A stretch of 64,000 bases of DNA from Thermoplasmata archaeon (lineage in GTDB: Archaea; Thermoplasmatota; Thermoplasmata; RBG-16-68-12; JAJISG01). The notes below the pieces were generated by a model. It saw nothing but the letters and a program-made list of their open reading frames with translations, searched no databases and was not told where the DNA came from. Below, in pieces: positions 44,639-54,487 of the stretch. A program made the translations under genes and the position numbers. The DNA lies in NCBI GenBank assembly GCA_046758325.1, contig JBHHZZ010000003.1, forward strand, positions 12,381 through 76,380, in the 5' to 3' direction. How positions within the stretch are numbered: position 1 is the stretch's first letter; every line of letters starts with the position of its first letter.

Positions 44639-44743
44639 GGCCTTGAAACGCGTGACTGCGGGTATGAGTGGGACTTCCTAGTCTTTACCGCAATTAGATA
44701 AGCCTATTATATGTTCAGCTCTCTCCTCAGCCCGGAGGCCCCC

Positions 44744-45790
44744 ATGACGGAGAAGATGCCTGCGGCGGTGAAGACGAAACCGGCTCCTGAAAGCATCGAG
44801 CTGATGGACGTGCCGAAACCAAAGCCGGCCGCTGGTGAGGTCCTCATCAGGGTCCGCATAGCCTCCATCTGCGGCACGGATGTCCACATCTACAACTGGG
44901 ACGAATGGGCCAGAGCTCGCATCAGGCCGCCTCTGATACAGGGCCACGAGTTCGCGGGAGAGGTGGTGGAGCTGGGCCCGCATGCATCCCTCGTCCAAGT
45001 CGGGGACTACGTGTCCGCTGAGGGCCACATCGCCTGCGGGACCTGCTACCAGTGCAGAACGGGTCAGGCCCACATCTGCCCCAACGTCGAAATCATAGGC
45101 GTCGATCGGGACGGGGCCTTCGCGGAGTACGTGGCGGTTCCCGAGCAGAACGTCATCGTGAATCCCGCGGACCTGCCGTTGGAGATGGCTACCATACAGG
45201 ACCCCTTCGGTAATTCGGTCCAGACGGTCTTCTCCGCCGATGTGCCTGGAAACTACGTGGCGGTCTTCGGCCTCGGTCCCACAGGCCTCATGAGCGTCGC
45301 TCTCTGTCGTGCGGTCGGTGCGGCCAAGATATTCGCCGTGGGCCGCAAGAATGAGTATAGGATTAAGTTGGCGAAGGAACTGGGTGCCGACGTGACACTG
45401 AGGTCCACCGACGCATTGTCCTCCATTATTGATAAGGAAACTGACGGTAGAGGCGTGGACCACGTGTTGGAGATGTCCGGGAGCCCCGAGGCCTTTAACA
45501 TGGGACTGAAGGTCCTCAGGGCTGGGGGCGGCATGCACGTCCTGGGCATCTATCCGGCACCGTTCATGGTGGATGTCTCCTCGGACATCGTCACCAGGGG
45601 TGTCCACCTCCAGGGCATCCACGGCAGGCTCATGTATGAGGACTGGTACAGGATGGCGGGCCTGTTGACCTCAGGAAAGCTCAACCTCAAGCCCATCATA
45701 ACCCACCGCTTTCCCTTCGAGGAGTTCCTGGAGGCCATGGAGGTCATGAGATCGGGAAAGTGCGGCAAAGTGGTCGTCTATATGGAGTAG
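44744..45790 (+). CDS. tdh: L-threonine 3-dehydrogenase (Zn-dependent MDR family)
   Basis: Zn-ADH catalytic motif CGTDVHIY...GHEFAG and structural-zinc cysteines (CGTCYQCRTGQAHIC). Directly followed by a Kbl-type gene. Confidence 0.8.
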   Translation: MTEKMPAAVKTKPAPESIELMDVPKPKPAAGEVLIRVRIASICGTDVHIYNWDEWARARIRPPLIQGHEFAGEVVELGPHASLVQVGDYVSAEGHIACGTCYQCRTGQAHICPNVEIIGVDRDGAFAEYVAVPEQNVIVNPADLPLEMATIQDPFGNSVQTVFSADVPGNYVAVFGLGPTGLMSVALCRAVGAAKIFAVGRKNEYRIKLAKELGADVTLRSTDALSSIIDKETDGRGVDHVLEMSGSPEAFNMGLKVLRAGGGMHVLGIYPAPFMVDVSSDIVTRGVHLQGIHGRLMYEDWYRMAGLLTSGKLNLKPIITHRFPFEEFLEAMEVMRSGKCGKVVVYME

Positions 45791-45800
45791 GAGGCCCGAA

Positions 45801-46985
45801 ATGGTAGGTCCCACGAGTTTCCTTAGGGAGGAGTACGAGAGGCTGGTGAAGAGTAACCTGGATTGGAGGCTCCGGGTGCTCGAGGGGCCATCGGCACCCC
45901 ATAGCGTCGTGGATGGTAGGGAGCTCATCATGCTCTGCTCCAACAACTACCTCAACCTGAGCAACCATCCCAAGGTGAAGGAGGCAGCCAAGAAGGCGGT
46001 GGAGAGGTACGGGGCCGGCTCAGGGTCCGTCAGGGCCATTGCAGGCAACATGGACATTCACGAGGAGTTGGAGCGAAGGATAGCCGAGTTCAAGGGTTGC
46101 GAAGCCGCCCTCGTCTATTCGGCGGGATTCGCGGCCAACTCGGGCCTCATCCCCCAGCTGGTGGACAAGGGAGATGTGGTCATCAGCGACGAGCTGAACC
46201 ACGGCAGCATCATCGATGGAGTGCGCCTGACAAAGGCGGACCGCATGATCTACAAGCACTGCGACGTGGCCGATCTGAGGAGGACCCTTGAAGAGGCAAA
46301 GAGGGCGGGCTATCGCCGAATCCTCATCGCTACGGACGGCGTCTTCAGCATGGACGGTGACGTGGCCCCTGTGGACGAGATCGTGAAACTCGCGGAGGAG
46401 TTCGGCGCCGTCACCTTCGTGGACGACGCCCACGGCGAAGGTGTTCTGGGAGATGGTGGTCGCGGTATCGCCTCCCATTTCCACGTGGAGGGTCGGGTAG
46501 ACATTGAGATGGGCACCTTCTCCAAGGCCTTCGGTGTCATGGGTGGATACGTTGCCGGAAGCGAGGACCTGAGGCTGTATGCCCTGAACAAGTCTAGAAC
46601 CTGGCTGCTCTCGGCCTCACATCCGCCCGCCGTCGTCGCCGCCTGCATAGCGGCCATCGAAGTGCTGGAGACGGAGCCCGAGTGGGTCCGGAAGCTATGG
46701 GACAACACCAAGTACTTCAAGGAAGAGTTAAGGTCGATGGGCTTCGATACCGGGATAAGCGTGACGCCCATAACGCCTGTAATCGTGGGAGAGAGTGCGG
46801 TTGCCAAGAAGCTGAGTGAACGTCTCCTCGAGCTGGGCGTGTTCGCTCTGCCCATCGTGTATCCTATGGTGGCCCGCGACAGAGCCAGGATAAGGACAAT
46901 AATGAACGCTGCCCTCACGCGGGAGGACCTCGACAGCGCCCTCGGCGCCTTCGACAGGGCTGGGAAGGAGCTGGGCATCATCTGA
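45801..46985 (+). CDS. kbl: 2-amino-3-ketobutyrate CoA ligase (glycine C-acetyltransferase)
   Basis: Alpha-oxoamine synthase family (PLP-lysine region TFSKAFG). Operon context with tdh supports Kbl over BioF. Confidence 0.8.
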   Translation: MVGPTSFLREEYERLVKSNLDWRLRVLEGPSAPHSVVDGRELIMLCSNNYLNLSNHPKVKEAAKKAVERYGAGSGSVRAIAGNMDIHEELERRIAEFKGCEAALVYSAGFAANSGLIPQLVDKGDVVISDELNHGSIIDGVRLTKADRMIYKHCDVADLRRTLEEAKRAGYRRILIATDGVFSMDGDVAPVDEIVKLAEEFGAVTFVDDAHGEGVLGDGGRGIASHFHVEGRVDIEMGTFSKAFGVMGGYVAGSEDLRLYALNKSRTWLLSASHPPAVVAACIAAIEVLETEPEWVRKLWDNTKYFKEELRSMGFDTGISVTPITPVIVGESAVAKKLSERLLELGVFALPIVYPMVARDRARIRTIMNAALTREDLDSALGAFDRAGKELGII

Positions 46986-47037: not shown

Positions 47038-47046
47038 GTTATATAT
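47038..47046 (+). promoter_or_regulatory. TATA box (GTTATATAT) overlapping the first in-frame ATG of the methyltransferase ORF
   Basis: An AT-rich element immediately abutting the ORF-track start at 47049. This implies the real start codon is downstream, for example TTG 47079 or ATG 47172. Confidence 0.35.
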
Positions 47047-47048
47047 GG

Positions 47049-47792
47049 ATGTGTCCACAGGACGGCAGGAGGGATGCGTTGGCGGCCTTGGTCACCACAA
47101 CGGATATCCTAGAGAAGCTCGACCTTGAAACGACGACACTGTGGGACTTCCCTTTCCAAAGTCCCCCTAAGATGCCCTTCGGAGACGCGGCCTTCAACGG
47201 TGTCGCCCCCTCCCGCCTTGTGTGGAATCTGGTTGTTCGTTTCACCCGCAAGGGGGACTGGGTGGTCGACCCAATGGCCGGCAGCGGCACGACGCTCGAT
47301 GTGGCTCGATCCCTGGGTCGAAGGGTACTGGGTTTCGACCTCTCTCCCAGGAGGCGGGACATCCACCGGGCGGACGCCCGGGACCTACCGCTTCCAAGCG
47401 ACTTCGCCCCGCTAGTATTCCTGGACCCGCCCTACGGAGACAACCTCTGCTATTCCAACGACCCGAGGTGCCTAGGAGCCTTGACTTGTGATTCCGACGC
47501 TTTCTACGATGAGCTGTGTGGAGTGGCGTCGGAGGTCAAGAGGATTCTCCGGACCGGGGGAGTCTCCGCATGGCTGATTAGCGACCAGTACAGAGACTCT
47601 AGGTTCACACCTGTTGGGTTCTCCCTCTTCTCTCTCCTACGGAATCTGTTCGAACCCGTGGACATAATCGCAGTGTCTCGGCGTAATGATCGCAGCCTGA
47701 ACCCTCACTGGAGGCACTGGTCTAGGAGGGCAAACTTCTTTCTTCGGGGCTTCAAGTATCTGCTCATCTTCCGAAAAGGAGGGGTTCCATGA
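47049..47792 (+). CDS. DPPY-motif SAM-dependent methyltransferase (N6-adenine/N4-cytosine DNA methyltransferase or m2G RNA methylase class)
   Basis: Motif I VVDPMAGSGTTLDVARSLGRRVLGFDL, followed about 45 aa later by motif IV FLDPPYG. No cognate restriction gene adjacent. The 5' end is uncertain. Confidence 0.65.
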   Translation: MCPQDGRRDALAALVTTTDILEKLDLETTTLWDFPFQSPPKMPFGDAAFNGVAPSRLVWNLVVRFTRKGDWVVDPMAGSGTTLDVARSLGRRVLGFDLSPRRRDIHRADARDLPLPSDFAPLVFLDPPYGDNLCYSNDPRCLGALTCDSDAFYDELCGVASEVKRILRTGGVSAWLISDQYRDSRFTPVGFSLFSLLRNLFEPVDIIAVSRRNDRSLNPHWRHWSRRANFFLRGFKYLLIFRKGGVP

Positions 47793-48202
47793 GGGCTCAG
47801 ACATCCCCTTTGGAGAGAGCAGGGACCGCAGGCTGGAGGCTCTTCGAGGGCCTGCGGGACGATGTCGCGAAAGGGCTGCAAGGCACGAGTGACCGTCTCC
47901 AGGTCCACGTGATGCGTGGTTGGATCTCCTTCAAGTCCGAGAATCTCAAGAGGGTCTTCGCCGAGGTGAGGCCTCATCGGCGCGACGTAGAGGTTTTCAT
48001 CCTGCCTCCTCCGGAGTTCTTGGAGCGAACAAACGGTCTCGCCAGGTCCTCTCCGCCCACCCAGGGGTGGGGTTGGTTTCGGTCCAAGTTCCGCCTTGTC
48101 CGACTGGAGGACGTGAAGTCAGCAAAGGACCTCCTGATGCAGTCATACCAGTATCGGAAGGAGATGAGCCGAAGGAAAAGGAGGGGGAATCGGAAGGACT
48201 GA
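47789..48202 (+). CDS. Basic hypothetical protein, DUF5655-like
   Basis: Start overlaps the methyltransferase stop (ATGA). The core GWISFKSENLKRVFAEVRPHRRDVEVFIL resembles DUF5655-type domains. The C-terminus is Arg/Lys-rich. Confidence 0.4.
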   Translation: MRAQTSPLERAGTAGWRLFEGLRDDVAKGLQGTSDRLQVHVMRGWISFKSENLKRVFAEVRPHRRDVEVFILPPPEFLERTNGLARSSPPTQGWGWFRSKFRLVRLEDVKSAKDLLMQSYQYRKEMSRRKRRGNRKD

Positions 48203-48247
48203 GAGAAACCGGGTATGGTCGTGGTCCCTAAGAAGAGAGGGAAACCC

Positions 48248-48255
48248 CATAAATA
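48248..48255 (+). promoter_or_regulatory. TATA box (CATAAATA) of purS
   Basis: Lies 23 bp upstream of the purS ATG at 48278, implying a leaderless transcript. Confidence 0.4.
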
Positions 48256-48277
48256 CTAACGAGCGGTGGGGTACCTC

Positions 48278-48541
48278 ATGGTCACTGCGAGGGTGGAGGT
48301 CCGCCTCAAGAAGGGTGTGGCGGATCCAGAGGGAGAGAACACCCTCAAGGCCCTCAACTTGCTGGGCTTCAACGAGGTCCAAGGTGTGAGGTCCATCAAG
48401 GTGTTCGAGCTGGACCTTGAGACCGAGGATGAAGGGAAGGCCCGAGAGATGCTGGAGAACATGTGCAGACGGCTCTTGGCGAACCCCGTGATTCACGACT
48501 ACTCTATCCATCTCCTTCAGCAGAGAACAGCTGGACCATAG
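48278..48541 (+). CDS. purS: Phosphoribosylformylglycinamidine synthase subunit PurS
   Basis: About 87 aa ferredoxin-like fold (MVTARVEVRLKKGVADPEGENTLKALNLLGF...), typical of PurS. Confidence 0.8.
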   Translation: MVTARVEVRLKKGVADPEGENTLKALNLLGFNEVQGVRSIKVFELDLETEDEGKAREMLENMCRRLLANPVIHDYSIHLLQQRTAGP

Positions 48542-48787
48542 CGGCATTGGAGCGGCCCCCCTCACCAGTCCTAAGAAAGTTGACTCCACCACTAGGACGG
48601 CCGGAGATCTGCACCCTTTCTCCTTCTCTTTTCTTCAATCCTGATTACCTTGAGGCCACATGCCTCCCGAGGAGAACCAGAATCCTCAAGCGAAAGCCAC
48701 CAAGAGTCCCGGGCAATAGGCTCTCGACATGACCATAGAGGTCCGGAGGGACCCAAGGACTTAACTGTGCAACGAGACGTGCTCCGC

Positions 48788-49294
48788 ATGAACGTGTCTG
48801 ATTTCTCTCAGCTCTTCGCGTATATGGCGGCGTCCCGTCGACAGTTTCTCACCAAGTTCCGAGAGCTGGGGTGGGATGAGGTCACTGAGAACCGAGAAGC
48901 CACCCACCATTCTATGCGCAATATCCTCATTCACATGCTGGACGTGGAGGATTCCTACCTGCAGGAGGTCGTTCTGGGGAACGATATGACGGAATTGGAC
49001 CCTGAGAGCTTCAAGAGCTTCGATGAGACGGAGGTTTACAACAGTGAGGTTACCGAGAGGACGCGGGAATTCTTCGCCACACTATCTCCGGAAGACCTCG
49101 AAAGGAAGGTCTCTGTTCCCTGGTGGAAGGGGAAGGCGAAGTTCCGCGTGGAGCCCATCCTGCTCCACGCTTTCCTAGACGAGATGGCCCACCTGGGGGA
49201 GTTGATCTGCCTGATGTGGCAGATAGGCGTGGAGCCGCCCTTTCGGAGCATGGTGAGGAGCTGGACGAACACCCGCCCTGCACCCTCAGAATGA
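48788..49294 (+). CDS. DinB/YfiT-like (DinB_2) four-helix-bundle metalloprotein
   Basis: His motifs spaced as in DinB_2 (HHSMRNILIHMLDVEDSY...HAFLDEMAHLGE). Start chosen at ATG 48788. Confidence 0.55.
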   Translation: MNVSDFSQLFAYMAASRRQFLTKFRELGWDEVTENREATHHSMRNILIHMLDVEDSYLQEVVLGNDMTELDPESFKSFDETEVYNSEVTERTREFFATLSPEDLERKVSVPWWKGKAKFRVEPILLHAFLDEMAHLGELICLMWQIGVEPPFRSMVRSWTNTRPAPSE

Positions 49295-49570
49295 AAGCTA
49301 CTCCCGCCTCCCGATGCCTAAGGGAGTGCATGTGTCAGGACATTACTTGGGCGGTCCGTTAGGGAGCCACGGCCAACTTTCAAGCCTAACACTGATTGGT
49401 CATGCCGCTAGACCGGCCACGAAGAATCAGTGTGTCAAAGAACTCCTAAGGTTAATTAGGGAGCCCCATTATTGAACTGAGGCATAGGTTTGGCAGAGGT
49501 ATATCGGAAGAAAGAAGTCCCCTTTCCGCTCTACACGGTCGACATTTTGGAAGCTTCTGAGAACGACTTG

Positions 49571-51823
49571 ATGAGGATCAGTAAGGACCTAGGCCTGGCC
49601 CTCAACCTGGAGGAGATGAAGAGGATTCAGGAGTACTTCAGGGGAGTGGGTCGGAAGCCGACGGATGTCGAGCTCCAATCCCTCGGCCAGGCCTGGTCCG
49701 AGCATTGCTGCTACAAGTCCTCCAAGTTCTTCCTTCGGGAGTTTGTCTTCGGCATAGAGGCATCTCAGGTCCTGCTGAAAGGTGACGCGGGCGTGGTGGA
49801 GTTCGACGAGGACCACGCCTATGCCCTCAGGATTGAGAGCCACAATCACCCCAGCGCCATAGAGCCCTACGGTGGTGCTGCCACTGGAATCGGCGGCATC
49901 CTCCGGGATGTCCTCTGCATGGGGGCCAAGCCCATTGCCCTCGTGGACCCCCTCCATTTCGGTCCCCTGGACTACCCCTATGAGAAGCTGTCCAGAGGCG
50001 TGAAGCATCCGTTGTATCTGACGCAAGGAGTGGTGGCTGGCATCCGAGACTACGGCAACAGGGTGGGGGTGCCCACCGTAGCCGGGTCCATCTACTTCAA
50101 CGAGGGCTACCTGGGGAACATCATCGTAAACGTGGGCTGCGTGGGTATTGCTCGCAAGGAACGCATACTCAAAAACGCCGTGAAGAGTCCTCAGGATGTC
50201 TTCATCCTGGCGGGAGGCAGAACGGGTAGGGATGGCATCCACGGTGTGACCTTTGCCTCTCTGGAGCTGACGGATGAGATGTGGGAGGAGTGGAGGGCCG
50301 GCGCCGTCCAGCTGGGAGACCCCATCATGAAGGAGCCCCTGATGCACGCCTGCCTGGAGGCGGCCGGAAAGGACCTCGTTGATGGCATGAAGGACCTGGG
50401 TGGTGGGGGCCTGAGCTGCGTCGTCGGAGAGATGGCCCTCGCCGGAGGCTACGGGGCTGAGGTGTACCTGGACAGGGTCCCTCTCAAGGAGGAGGAACTC
50501 TCGCCCTGGGAGGTCTGGGTGAGCGAGTCCCAGGAACGGATGATGCTAGCGGTCCCCGAGGAGAAGGTGGAAGATGTTCTCAGCATCTTCGAGCTCTACG
50601 ACGTGCCTGCGACGCCCATAGGCCGGGTCATTGAGGACAAGGTGGCCCGAGTCCTCTACAAGGGTCACAAGGTCCTGGAAATGGATCTGGAGTTCTACAC
50701 CAGGGGTCCAGAGTACTGCAGACCCTTCCTCACCGATCTGGAAATGGAGAAGGTGAAGGAGGTGGCGCCTCGCGAGCCTGGGGACTACGGGAAGGTGATC
50801 CTACAGCTCCTGGGAAGCCCCAACATCGCCAGCAAGGAGCTGGTCATCCGTCAATACGATCATGAGGTCAAGGCCTCCACGGTCATCAAACCCCTCCAGG
50901 GGGTCCTGGGCAAGCAATGTCACGGAGATGCAGCCGTCCTCAAACCCCTTGAGGACTCTTGGAGAGGCCTGGCCATCGCAACCGCCTCCACACCACAGTT
51001 TGCCAGACTCCATCCCTTCAGGGGCGGCGCCTCCGCGGTGGATGAGGTATGTAGGAACCTGGTGTCCGTCGGCGCGAGACCCCACGCCCTCAGCGATTGC
51101 CTGAGCTTTGGAAACCCTGAGAGACCCGACCGTCTGGGCTACTTCCGAGAAGCTGTGAGGGGCCTCGGGCATGTGGCATCGGCCATGAAGCTTCCAATCC
51201 CTTCCGGAAATGTGAGCTTCTACAACGAGACCCCGGTATCGCCCGTACCGCCTACGCCAGTACTCCTCGGCACTGGCATCGTTCCAGACATCAGGCATTG
51301 CGTCACTTCCGACCTGAAGGCTGAAGGCTCAAGCCTCTACCTCCTGGGGAGGACCAAGGCCGAGTTGGGAGGAAGTGAGTACTACAGGTTGACGGGCGGC
51401 CAAGGAGGCCAGGTGCCGGATGTGGACGTAGACTTGCTCAAGGCCTCCGTCGAAGGACTCCTGAAGGCCATGGAGAGTGGTCTGGTGCTGGCAAGTCATG
51501 ACCTCTCGCATGGTGGTCTGGCCGTTGCCCTGGCAGAGATGTGCATGGGCGGGGATCTGGGGGTAGAGGCGGAGATCGCTCCCGGGGCCCTCAGGCCAGA
51601 TATCTTTCTCTTCTCGGAGTCCAACACGAGATGGCTCCTGGAGGTGGATACGGCGAAGGAGGACAGTCTGCTGGAGGTCCTCCAGGGGCTTCCCCTGGCG
51701 CATATAGGCCAGGTCAGAGGGTCGGAGCTGAGGCTGAAGGTCGGCAGCAAAACCCTCAGCCTGAGCGTAGAGGGAATGAGGTCCGCCTGGTCTTCGGCCT
51801 TGCCCCGGCTGGTAGGTGGTTGA
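49571..51823 (+). CDS. purL: Phosphoribosylformylglycinamidine synthase II
   Basis: AIR-synthase-related domains in tandem (WSEHCCYKSS..., HNHPSAIEPYGGAATGIGGILRD). The N-terminus may instead begin at 49490. Confidence 0.9.
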   Translation: MRISKDLGLALNLEEMKRIQEYFRGVGRKPTDVELQSLGQAWSEHCCYKSSKFFLREFVFGIEASQVLLKGDAGVVEFDEDHAYALRIESHNHPSAIEPYGGAATGIGGILRDVLCMGAKPIALVDPLHFGPLDYPYEKLSRGVKHPLYLTQGVVAGIRDYGNRVGVPTVAGSIYFNEGYLGNIIVNVGCVGIARKERILKNAVKSPQDVFILAGGRTGRDGIHGVTFASLELTDEMWEEWRAGAVQLGDPIMKEPLMHACLEAAGKDLVDGMKDLGGGGLSCVVGEMALAGGYGAEVYLDRVPLKEEELSPWEVWVSESQERMMLAVPEEKVEDVLSIFELYDVPATPIGRVIEDKVARVLYKGHKVLEMDLEFYTRGPEYCRPFLTDLEMEKVKEVAPREPGDYGKVILQLLGSPNIASKELVIRQYDHEVKASTVIKPLQGVLGKQCHGDAAVLKPLEDSWRGLAIATASTPQFARLHPFRGGASAVDEVCRNLVSVGARPHALSDCLSFGNPERPDRLGYFREAVRGLGHVASAMKLPIPSGNVSFYNETPVSPVPPTPVLLGTGIVPDIRHCVTSDLKAEGSSLYLLGRTKAELGGSEYYRLTGGQGGQVPDVDVDLLKASVEGLLKAMESGLVLASHDLSHGGLAVALAEMCMGGDLGVEAEIAPGALRPDIFLFSESNTRWLLEVDTAKEDSLLEVLQGLPLAHIGQVRGSELRLKVGSKTLSLSVEGMRSAWSSALPRLVGG

Positions 51824-51843: not shown

Positions 51844-52671
51844 GTGAAGAGGGAGGACATAGGGGTGTGCATCCTTCTGATCGAGGGTACCAACTGCGAG
51901 GACGAGACCTTCCATGCCTTCGAGGCCCTGGGTGCCCGACCGGAGAGAGTACACCTGAACCAACTGGTGAGGGATGTTCCCCGGGAGATGAGGAGGAGCC
52001 TGGAGGACTACGGTGTCCTGGTCTTCCCAGGGGGCTTCTCCTCCGGGGACTACGTCAGAGCCGGCGCCATCTGGGCAGCCAGGGTGAAGAGCCGCCTCAT
52101 GCGGGATCTCGTGAGATTCATAGACGAGGGGAAGCTAGTCGTCGGCATATGCAACGGCTACCAGGTGCTGGTGGAGCTGGGCCTCCTCCCTGCTATCGGA
52201 GATGTCAGCGACGTCCCCCAGGCGGCCCTGGCGACCAACGACTCCGCCCGATACGAATGTAGGCCCTCGCTCCTCAGGTTTGAGAACGGCGGCCTATGTA
52301 GCCCCTTGAAAGGCTTCCAGAGGGGACAGGTGATGTTGGCCCCATCAGCCCATACCGAGGGGAAGCTCACATTTCCCAAGGGAGAGGAGAAGAGAATGGT
52401 GGAGGCCCTCCTGGACGGGGACCAGGTGCTCTTCCGATACGTGGACGCTGAGGGGAGGTACGCAGGATATCCGTGGAATCCCAATGGGAGCATCTATAAC
52501 ATCGCGGGCATATGCGACCCCCACGGGAACGTCCTGGGACTGATGCCCCATCCCGAGAGGTCCTTTCATCGATACTTGCATCCGGACTGGACCCGCGGCG
52601 GCAATGGCCTCCACGGAGATGGGAGGCTCTTCTTCGAGTCACTACTGGACCACGCCACTAAGACTTCCTAG
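51844..52671 (+). CDS. purQ: Phosphoribosylformylglycinamidine synthase I (glutaminase subunit)
   Basis: Class I glutamine amidotransferase with catalytic GICNGYQ and C-terminal HPE(R). Confidence 0.85.
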   Translation: MKREDIGVCILLIEGTNCEDETFHAFEALGARPERVHLNQLVRDVPREMRRSLEDYGVLVFPGGFSSGDYVRAGAIWAARVKSRLMRDLVRFIDEGKLVVGICNGYQVLVELGLLPAIGDVSDVPQAALATNDSARYECRPSLLRFENGGLCSPLKGFQRGQVMLAPSAHTEGKLTFPKGEEKRMVEALLDGDQVLFRYVDAEGRYAGYPWNPNGSIYNIAGICDPHGNVLGLMPHPERSFHRYLHPDWTRGGNGLHGDGRLFFESLLDHATKTS

Positions 52672-52672
52672 C

Positions 52673-54487
52673 TCATACCTGGTCGCTGTAGCCACATCGA
52701 ACGCACACGAAGCTCCCCTCCGCAGTACCGAGGACGGCCCCGCAGTCGGGGCAGACGTCCTTCGACTTGCTCCCCTGCAGGCTCAGGGGCTGCTCCCTCT
52801 TGCTGCCCTCCCTGTAGACGGTTATGCCCTTGCATCGTAGCTTCCAGGCCAGCATGAAGGCGGTCTCTACGTCCTCCACGGTGGCGTTCCGGCGGAGATT
52901 TATCGTCTTGGACACGGCGTTGTCTACGTGCTCCTGAAAGGTCGCCTGGACCTTCACGTGCCACTCGGGTGTGACATCGTGGGAGGTGACGAAGATTCTC
53001 CTGGCATGGGGAGGTACCTCCTTCAGGTCCCGGATGGAGTGCCTCCTGGACACCTTCTCCATCAGCGTCTTGGAGAAGAAACCCTCCTCCTCCGCATACC
53101 TGAGAAAGTGGGGGTTGACCGCCTGGAGGGTCTCCCCGTCCTCCACCTTCTTGATGTAGGTGATGGCGTAGAGGGGCTCGATGCCGCTGGAACAGTCCGC
53201 CAGCAGGCTGATGGTCCCCGTGGGGGCGATGGTCGTCCTCGTGGCGTTCCTCATCGGCGCCTTGTAAATGCTCTTGTCTATGTTGGGGAAGGAGCCTCGT
53301 GCCTCTCCTATCTTCCTGGACTCGTCGTCAGCCGTCTTCCTGATGAAGGACATCAACTTCTGGGCCAGATCCAGCGCTTCCTGGGAATCGTAAGGAATGC
53401 GCAGCTGGATGAGGGCATCGGCCCAGCCCATGATGCCCAAACCGATCTTGCGGTTGCCCCTCACCATCTCGCTGATCTCCTCCATGGGGAATCTGCTCAT
53501 GTCGATGACGTTGTCCAGGAAGCGGACCGCCTCGCGGACGACATCCTCCAGCCTATTCCAGTCCACCTCCCGCTGGCCCGAGGGACCCGTGAGCATCTTC
53601 GCCACGTCTATGGATCCGAGGTTGCAGGCCTCGTATGGCAGGAGGGGTTGCTCCCCGCAGGGATTGGTGGCCTCGATGCGTCCCAGGCCGGGCGTGGGAT
53701 TCCCCTCCTCTATGCTGTCCAAGAATATGACGCCCGGGTCCCCCGTGAGCCAGGCCATCTCCGCCATGAGCTTGAAGATTCTTCGCGCGTCCTTCTTACC
53801 GATGACCTCCCCCTTCCTGGCATGGATGATGTCGTACTTCCCCCCGACATCAACCTTCCTCATGAAGCTGTCAGTGACGGCCACGGAGAGGTTGAAGTTG
53901 GAGAAGCGGCCCTCCATCCGCTTACAGGTGATGAACTCCTCTATGTCGGGATGGTCCACCCGCAGGATGCCCATGTTGGCGCCGCGTCTCCTCCCACCCT
54001 GCTTTATGGCCTCGGTGCTGTGATCGAAGACCCTCATGAAGGAGACGGGGCCGCTGGCGACGCCACCAGTGGACTTGACGATGTCCCCCTTTGGCCTCAG
54101 GCGGGAGAAGGAGAAGCCCGTGCCGCCACCGCTCTGGTGGATGAGGGCAGCGGCCTTCAGGGCGCTGTAGATGCTGTCAATGGAGTCCTCCACCGGGAGG
54201 ACGAAGCAGGCAGACAGCTGCTGGATCTCCGTCCCCGCGTTCATGAGGGTGGGGCTGTTGGGAAGGAATTCCAGTCGGGCCATCATGTCGAAGAACTCCT
54301 TCTCTTCGCTGGAGACGGTCCTTCCGTCGTCGTATAGCTCGTTGGCCAGGGCTATGTTGTGGGCCACGCGCTGGAACATCTCCTTCGGCGTCTCCACGAT
54401 TCTGCCCGCTATGTCCTTCCTGAGGTAACGCTTCCTGGCCACCGTCAGGGCATTGTTGCTCAGCACCACCTCTGCCAGCATTTCCAC
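52673..54487 (-). CDS. Adenosylcobalamin-dependent (class II) ribonucleoside reductase
   Basis: RNR catalytic motif NPCGEQPLLPYEACNLGSID, a 604 aa monomeric class II architecture, and a C-terminal zinc ribbon (CPDCG...CVRCG). Confidence 0.85.
   Translation of the reverse strand: MEMLAEVVLSNNALTVARKRYLRKDIAGRIVETPKEMFQRVAHNIALANELYDDGRTVSSEEKEFFDMMARLEFLPNSPTLMNAGTEIQQLSACFVLPVEDSIDSIYSALKAAALIHQSGGGTGFSFSRLRPKGDIVKSTGGVASGPVSFMRVFDHSTEAIKQGGRRRGANMGILRVDHPDIEEFITCKRMEGRFSNFNLSVAVTDSFMRKVDVGGKYDIIHARKGEVIGKKDARRIFKLMAEMAWLTGDPGVIFLDSIEEGNPTPGLGRIEATNPCGEQPLLPYEACNLGSIDVAKMLTGPSGQREVDWNRLEDVVREAVRFLDNVIDMSRFPMEEISEMVRGNRKIGLGIMGWADALIQLRIPYDSQEALDLAQKLMSFIRKTADDESRKIGEARGSFPNIDKSIYKAPMRNATRTTIAPTGTISLLADCSSGIEPLYAITYIKKVEDGETLQAVNPHFLRYAEEEGFFSKTLMEKVSRRHSIRDLKEVPPHARRIFVTSHDVTPEWHVKVQATFQEHVDNAVSKTINLRRNATVEDVETAFMLAWKLRCKGITVYREGSKREQPLSLQGSKSKDVCPDCGAVLGTAEGSFVCVRCGYSDQV

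Follow-up and report, generated by a model that had tools for sequence, protein, structure and literature searches.

Persistent orphan DNA methyltransferases, Type-II-like methylases that have no nuclease, are inherited vertically and keep a conserved position, are established in archaea, for example the CTAG N4-methylcytosine (m4C) family HG1 of Halobacteria and the Dam-like family HG3 (PMC10609329). The bacterial enzymes Dam and CcrM are of the same kind. Orphan archaeal methylases are common, yet next to nothing is known of what reads their marks and what they do. I describe here a locus in a 64,000-nucleotide (nt) stretch of DNA from a Thermoplasmata archaeon (the window, to which all positions refer unless a locus is named), in which the gene for a methyltransferase (MT) is followed by that for a basic protein of 137 amino acids (aa), the partner, with a DUF5655-like domain. 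The best reading of this locus, which I hold with moderate confidence from its sequence, is that of a persistent orphan DNA methyltransferase co-translated with a dedicated DNA-binding accessory protein. It resembles the orphan methylases above in all the respects named; however, those are single genes, whereas MT has an obligately linked small protein, and at least one relative is without the pair.

Several other described families can be set beside MT. The beta-class N6/N4 DNA methyltransferases (PF01555; TTHA0409, M.MboIIA, M.RsrI, CcrM, M.PvuII) are like it around motif X/I and the (D/S)PPY block, but the order of these blocks is permuted in MT, which at about 237 aa has a short conserved C-terminal segment instead of an internal target-recognition domain. 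The M2 methylases of BsaWI-like restriction-modification (R-M) systems, found in Omnitrophota and other bacteria, have the size, motifs and C-terminal segment of MT and are 51% identical to it over the full length. However, the bacterial genes stand in M1-R-M2 operons without a DUF5655 partner, whereas the archaeal ones have neither M1 nor R, and the clade of the window has DPPY rather than DSPY. Finally, Trm11, TrmN and Trm14, the tRNA N2-methylguanosine (m2G) methyltransferases (UPF0020), share the motif order and DPPYG with MT and give its best overall fold match, but MT has no THUMP domain, falls below the thresholds of the family hidden Markov models and has no detectable sequence match to the solved members.

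The partner, for its part, shares a topology (helix, four strands, loop, strand, helix) with DUF5655 (PF18899), with PDC-S18 and with the YjbR/MmcQ-YdhG-MotA C-terminal folds, and has the sequence pattern common to DUF5655 (W/Y-I-x-F-K, F-A, an aromatic G-W loop and A..L..QSY). It differs in standing alone, in having a basic C-terminal tail and an invariant TQGWGWF loop of its own, and in being linked to a methylase rather than fused to a nuclease. As a methylase together with a possible reader of its mark, the pair may be likened to Dam and SeqA, although by conceptual analogy only; seqA is not linked to dam.

Persistent orphan methylases of archaea are already known, and MT is a permuted branch of a known family. 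What is new is the obligate DUF5655 partner, the link that results between DUF5655 and DNA modification or restriction, and the exposure of an inconsistent methylase annotation. The pair would provide a concrete case in which the reading or targeting of a methyl mark can be studied. It also offers a first clue to the function of DUF5655, on which there is next to no literature (one paper in a full-text search) and which, in the proteins checked, rides on restriction-type nucleases. Should the pair be only an autoregulated orphan methylase, the finding would be an ordinary one.

Distribution of the pair

A scan for the partner motif in one genome per GTDB species returned 33 loci, all of them in uncultured Thermoplasmata or in metagenome-assembled genomes (MAGs) labelled Methanomassiliicoccales or 'Methanobacteriota'. 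MT lies immediately upstream of the partner on the same strand in every one of the 33, with a gap of -29 to +27 nt in all but one, and motifs I and IV of the methylase are intact in nearly all (motif IV as DPPY or DSPY). In the window itself the start of the partner overlaps the stop of MT as ATGA (47789-47792). An earlier reading of the window, made from the sequence only, had proposed that the methylase and a DUF5655-like protein form a translationally coupled pair. The overlap is where that reading placed it, and adjacency in all 33 loci, in two different neighbourhoods, upholds the pair; nor is the partner confined to this genome, as that reading had allowed it might be.

About a quarter of the loci have the kbl/purS neighbourhood of the window, in which the order in relatives is tdh, kbl, none or one variable minus-strand gene, MT, partner, purS, a variable slot, purL, purQ and ribonucleotide reductase. 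Here purS follows the pair in all relatives, and synteny is kept down to about 62-67% MT identity. In some of them a minus-strand gene lies between kbl and MT, either that of a major facilitator superfamily (MFS) transporter or one of 620 aa. The other loci have no pur genes. Genes that recur around the pair in this second class, without being present each time, are those for PolB, a YchF-like GTPase, PfkB, ribosomal protein L15e and a ThiI/THUMP protein; in the flanks of the high-GC loci only PolB, the YchF-like GTPase and a TauE-like membrane protein are conserved (by open reading frame (ORF) clustering, which is noisy). Because the pair occurs in two different conserved neighbourhoods, it has relocated as a unit at least once and has otherwise been inherited vertically.

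The 33 loci and the look-ups were reached through the pair itself, and a separate search via kbl was added. Of its 26 best matches, ten lie on contigs whose lengths agree with those of contigs that bear the pair. Relative L062 (GCA_046759185.1, 7197-12790; kbl 79%, purL 73%) has tdh-kbl-MFS-purS-purL-purQ on a long contig, without the pair, and in L064 (kbl 73%) the linkage to purS is altogether lost. Since the syntenic L062 does without it, the pair is an old, stable two-gene cassette that is neither a universal core gene nor ancestral to the locus. There are no meaningful direct or inverted repeats flanking the pair, Rfam and tRNA scans of the region found no tRNA or non-coding RNA to mark an insertion site, and the GC content of the pair is like that of its neighbours, all of which argues against recent mobility. 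Thus, 'wedged in', as the sequence-only reading put it, is a fair description given the locus of L062, but with native composition, no repeats and such deep synteny the insertion is not a recent one.

Classification of the methyltransferase

MT matches the Pfam family N6_N4_Mtase (PF01555) with 65.7 bits, against a gathering cut-off of 26.7, and the PADLOC model MTase_II (Type II methyltransferase) over its full length. On N6_N4_Mtase the best stretch is confined to the motif I part (profile positions 134-217), and a second, weaker stretch covers the DPPY part. The top match among PDB sequences is TTHA0409, again in two stretches: residues 104-179 of MT align with 23-99 of the chain (the SPPY/DPPY block) and residues 54-114 with 221-282 (motif I). 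Because these stretches align in swapped order, MT is best described as a circularly permuted relative of the beta-class design, without its internal recognition domain, and not as a canonical beta-class member. The beta-class order is motif IV, target-recognition domain, motif I, whereas in MT the motif I sequence DPMAGSGTT (residues 74-82 in the numbering of the 247-aa ORF) precedes DPPY (126-129, within FLDPPYG, 124-130). Both motifs are as the sequence-only reading gave them.

A family profile built from 12 members matched only beta-class DNA amino-methyltransferases in the PDB, ten in number, including TTHA0409 (1.8e-15), rotifer N4CMT, MboIIA, RsrI, CcrM, PvuII and DpnA, and none of Trm11, TrmN and RlmL appeared among PDB sequences at E<1. 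By sequence, MT groups with the DNA methylases and not with Trm11/RlmL, a grouping with RNA methylases that the earlier reading had considered. In the classical motif rule the invariant D of D-P/S-P-Y leans to N6-adenine; on this rule the target of MT leans towards N6-adenine, with N4-cytosine as the alternative. The family is large (2752 matches) and unusually conserved (50-74% identity). The C-terminal stretch RRNDRSLNPxW...NFxLRGFKYL is strongly conserved, though disordered in the structure model of MT, and is plausibly an element that contacts the substrate. One homologue, in a Thermoplasmata MAG (L043:843-2975, DASWGO010000178.1), is split by an intein of about 390 aa with LAGLIDADG-type motifs, which sits exactly within the SAM-binding motif I (DPMAG|CYDE...VWCGN|SGT; SAM, S-adenosylmethionine). 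An intein inside a DNA-methylase motif is unusual, and this one fits a long-resident, conserved gene.

Outside archaea, full-length homologues with 41-51% identity are located in R-M operons and beside phage packaging genes, as would be expected of DNA methylases. The Omnitrophota-type operons run helix-turn-helix (HTH) controller, M1 (453-458 aa), restriction enzyme (Pfam RE_BsaWI, 1.3e-33) and M2, the last being of the MT family, and lie in defence islands with GmrSD, HEPN or ThsB-TIR genes. One such BsaWI-like system is found in two bacterial lineages (M1 82%, R 68% identical), in two different defence-island neighbourhoods. A viral homologue (262 aa, 46% identity) is encoded on an IMG/VR contig (L060:149-5144, IMGVR_UViG_3300033149_005745), where the genes for the terminase large subunit and the portal protein follow immediately downstream. 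The partner gene is absent from the bacterial and viral contexts examined, this contig included. Conversely, neither M1 nor the BsaWI-like nuclease has a homologue in the window or in any archaeal locus fetched, so MT is the orphan without a restriction enzyme that the earlier reading had suggested. Among plasmid and phage reference collections, MT has no annotated close relative, and such matches as there are to it are weak or partial.

M1 (L015:3916-5292, L053:2949-4310) is also circularly permuted, with motif I near its N-terminus and SSPY about 200 residues on, and the two are separated in part by an inserted segment of about 150 aa. The idea that this extra segment is DUF5655-like, the partner being a domain split off from it, was rejected (hhalign probability 0.1%).

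The partner protein

The partner is very basic, with an isoelectric point (pI) of 11.2 and 30 K+R against 16 D+E, and pI ranges from 10.5 to 12 across its family. The identical protein in NCBI is a hypothetical protein of a Thermoplasmata archaeon MAG. Its sequence has no match in the PDB and none to any Pfam family up to E=10, the DUF5655 model included. Close relatives are few: 10 in a word-indexed search, and 25 at E<1e-10 in an exhaustive profile search of 1.84 billion representatives. Weaker matches to the partner profile (E 1e-9 to 1e-3) are mostly longer proteins, and nine of the ten that were scanned against Pfam carry DUF5655. In the scanned proteins this domain occurs alone, in three copies after a GmrSD_C nuclease domain, after NucS_C, or after HSDR_N / PD-(D/E)xK. 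Alignment of the partner family to the Pfam-confirmed DUF5655 domains with hhalign gives a probability of 98.7% (E 2.2e-16, 107 columns), although the targets were picked by the partner profile and the comparison is thus not fully independent. The partner also matches the PADLOC defence candidate PDC-S18 (E 2.9e-5), but only at model positions 222-325, the DUF5655-like part; the N-terminal 220 or so of the 365 positions have no counterpart in it. The label 'DUF5655-like' given by the sequence-only reading thus stands as one of remote homology and fold, but not by Pfam's own model.

The AlphaFold2 model of the partner is confident (pLDDT 85). Its fold matches are a YdhG-like protein (8.2), YjbR (7.4), CyaY (6.6), the C-terminal domain of T4 MotA bound to DNA (6.4) and PSPTO_3016 (6.4); Foldseek agrees. 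The list also includes 2a8e and 3mqz, which together with YjbR (2fki) are the reported nearest folds of McrB-N, a reader that flips 5-methylcytosine (PMC3424535); McrB-N itself is outside the partner's top 60 matches. YjbR has been predicted to bind DNA (PMC7641849), and from the model DNA binding would be the natural inference for the partner too. The residues invariant in the partner family (W45, F57-A58, F70, the G-W loop, A112, L115 and Q118-S119-Y120) follow the general DUF5655 pattern and include no catalytic-looking set.

Another stand-alone DUF5655-like protein, of 119 aa (L056:308-667, L057:3992-4351), is encoded on an AT-rich archaeal contig and is intermediate between the partner family and Pfam DUF5655. 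Its gene adjoins the S19-L22-S3 ribosomal-protein operon and has no methylase beside it, so a methylase linkage of other small stand-alone DUF5655-like proteins was rejected.

Interpretation and alternatives

The homologies are directly observed, as are the strict and tightly coupled pairing, the conservation of both neighbourhoods and the lack of a nearby nuclease; the following mechanism is proposed. MT would be a SAM-dependent exocyclic-amino DNA methyltransferase (N6-adenine or N4-cytosine), domesticated from an R-M system and now modifying a short site in the chromosome. This site is probably the same as, or similar to, that of the BsaWI-type (CCGG-family) systems, given that the bacterial R-M members share the C-terminal segment. 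The restriction enzyme would have been lost in this archaeal lineage and the methylase coupled instead to a very basic stand-alone DUF5655 domain, which presumably binds DNA, whether it reads methylated or hemimethylated sites, serves in targeting or is an autoregulator. The outcome for the cell would be a chromosomal epigenetic function rather than defence; the small defence cassette contemplated by the sequence-only reading is unlikely because no nuclease is present.

Some observations weigh against an orphan methylase with a dedicated accessory. WCCGGW hexamers are neither depleted nor otherwise unusual in the window, and so give no support from avoidance for a CCGG-type site. L062 has only 215 bp at the place of the pair, with no remnant, so the pair is dispensable. 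Furthermore, the DUF5655-like family beside the ribosomal-protein operon stands alone with no methylase link.

A bolder form of the proposal is that DUF5655 is a previously unrecognised domain that senses DNA modification, or at least recognises sites, and that in these Thermoplasmata a free-standing copy of it forms with a domesticated R-M methylase a writer-reader module, an archaeal counterpart of Dam/SeqA in one operon. I consider this possible but unlikely. If it were true, the DUF5655 domains on nucleases (GmrSD_C, NucS_C and HSDR_N fusions, PDC-S18) would direct restriction.

If MT were instead a THUMP-less Trm11/TrmN-like m2G methylase, or an RNA methylase of the rRNA m4C type, to which the basic partner supplies RNA binding, the two genes would be a housekeeping RNA-modification pair. 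The order of motifs I then IV with DPPYG and the catalytic-domain fold agree with Trm11 / UPF0020, Trm11 and TrmN are the best matches of MT in fold comparison, TIGR01177 gives a weak match, and public annotation is inconsistent, with members named either 'TRM11 family' (some of them by NCBI) or 'site-specific DNA-methyltransferase'. In addition, the second neighbourhood puts the pair next to L15e and the ThiI/THUMP gene, and its inheritance is vertical and long-lived. However, both UPF0020 (PF01170; 16.6 bits on MT against a cut-off of 22.3) and TIGR01177 (21.8 bits against 316.55) fall far short of their cut-offs. No THUMP domain was matched by Pfam up to E=10 in this protein of only 237 aa, the family profile retrieves DNA enzymes from the PDB, the full-length homologues belong to R-M operons or adjoin phage packaging genes, and a close relative (L062) dispenses with the pair. 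Between DNA and RNA as substrate, a choice that the sequence-only reading had left open, sequence and homologue context favour DNA, whereas the best fold matches do not, and an RNA-modification pair seems distinctly unlikely to me.

The remaining alternatives concern the partner. It might be a mere transcriptional autoregulator of MT, like the C proteins of R-M systems, or an unrelated co-transcribed DNA binder, with no part in reading or directing methylation. Double-wing domains can indeed act as transcription factors with sequence specificity, MotA being an example (PMC7641849). An HTH controller gene accompanies the bacterial R-M relatives, and MT homologues of the same length in bacteria and viruses have no partner in the contexts examined, so that MT seems not to need one for activity. 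Co-inheritance in 33 of 33 loci, translational coupling and joint relocation between two neighbourhoods nevertheless suggest more than regulation, and the presence of DUF5655 on nucleases points to DNA recognition beyond promoters; I take a purely regulatory or unrelated partner to be rather improbable. In a cryptic R-M or addiction module, the DUF5655 protein would be the harmful part, either a minimal nuclease or a DNA binder with toxic effect, and methylation would restrain it, which would account for the lasting association of the two genes. Such a module would also suit the R-M lineage of MT, the gene overlap like that of M-R pairs, the DUF5655 domains on restriction-type nucleases and in PDC-S18, and the varying presence of the pair among relatives. 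Yet the partner is nothing more than a DUF5655 domain and lacks any nuclease domain, the residues invariant in it fit DUF5655 at large rather than a catalytic set, and it was not found on viral contigs. The position of the pair in two housekeeping neighbourhoods, retained across deep divergence, its native composition and the absence of mobile-element traces also speak against such a module, which I judge very improbable.

Layout of the locus and neighbouring genes

The gene order proposed by the sequence-only reading (tdh-kbl, MT, partner, purS, DinB, purL-purQ) agrees with the ORFs and Pfam matches (Table 1), and the neighbours of the pair, in the window as at the other archaeal loci, are metabolic or translation genes.

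Table 1. Genes and sequence elements around the pair, in positions of the 64,000-nt window; all genes are on the + strand unless stated.
Feature	Positions	Strand	Remarks
tdh	44711-45790	+	
kbl	45801-46985	+	
TATA-box-like element TTATATAT	47039-47046	+	Read from sequence; about 33-40 nt upstream of TTG 47079; putative promoter
MT ORF	47049-47792	+	Open from ATG 47049, 247 aa
AGGAGG, Shine-Dalgarno-like element	47067-47072	+	Read from sequence; 6 nt ahead of TTG 47079; putative role
MT, 237 aa from TTG	47079-47792	+	Permuted N6/N4-type amino-methyltransferase; motif I DPMAGSGTT ahead of catalytic DPPY
Partner, 137 aa	47789-48202	+	Divergent stand-alone DUF5655 domain; double-wing / YjbR-like fold
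TATA-like ATAAATA for purS	48249-48255	+	About 26 nt ahead of ATG 48278; putative promoter with leaderless start
purS	48278-48541	+	Context gene outside the module; ORF open from GTG 48266; Pfam PurS 4.2e-29
Pyrimidine/T-rich tract after purS stop	48614-48637	+	Possible archaeal terminator
DinB-family protein, 168 aa	48788-49294	+	ORF open from 48650
purL	49490-51823	+	
purQ	51844-52671	+	

The start of MT probably lies downstream of its first ATG, because the public gene call of the identical protein (P0001, 237 aa), the alignment of the homologues, which begins at about this point, and the AGGAGG element all point to TTG 47079. The sequence-only reading had likewise held the 5' end to be misplaced, on the ground that a TATA box overlaps the first in-frame ATG. 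The 5' end is indeed likely to be further downstream, but the ATG that overlaps TTATATAT, at 47045, is out of frame with MT, and the in-frame ATG 47049 begins 3 nt past the box. The TATA box and pyrimidine-rich tract which that reading assigned to purS are both present.

DinB, the third gene of the cassette proposed in the sequence-only reading, scores above the cut-offs of both Pfam DinB (54.7 bits against 23, 1.5e-14) and DinB_2 (35.8 against 24.8, 1.2e-8), and its ATG lies 246 nt past the purS stop, close to the 250 bp first given. It alone interrupts purS-purL in the window, and other relatives have something else there or nothing. DinB occupies the slot in the window, L008 and L019 only (67-68% identity), its place being taken by DUF8412 in L001, a glyoxalase in L004, DUF2807 in L007 and a 358-aa gene in L009 and L010, and the slot is empty in L023, L024 and L062. 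The slot (48542-49489 in the window, and its equivalents) is thus a hotspot of small cargo genes that differ among relatives. Because its contents vary in this way, DinB is independent cargo and no part of the MT-partner module, and it is missing from most relatives that bear the pair. A single cassette of three genes was accordingly rejected on synteny, and the three are not universal among relatives either, given L062 and the variable slot. The proposal that an insertion had split an ancestral purSLQ unit holds for DinB, which separates purS from purL, but not for MT and the partner, which lie upstream of purS and split nothing. The GC content of 48250-49750 is slightly lower, at 0.54-0.56 against about 0.60.

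Further along, a class II ribonucleotide reductase gene lies on the minus strand at 52673-54487, between purQ and a CTP-dependent riboflavin kinase, as it does in other relatives; the pair-less L062 is also without it. Across the window (1-64000) GATC is strongly under-represented, with 238 occurrences where a Markov model expects about 375, and CATG, CCGG, GCGC and CTAG are likewise low; these lows may reflect other R-M pressure or another methylase in the genome. Finally, a single MAG (L019 and L020; assembly CAYFYB01, 'ERP108616_co2_1') has the entire locus twice, in diverged copies that carry DinB and DUF8412 respectively, and this bin probably mixes two strains or species.

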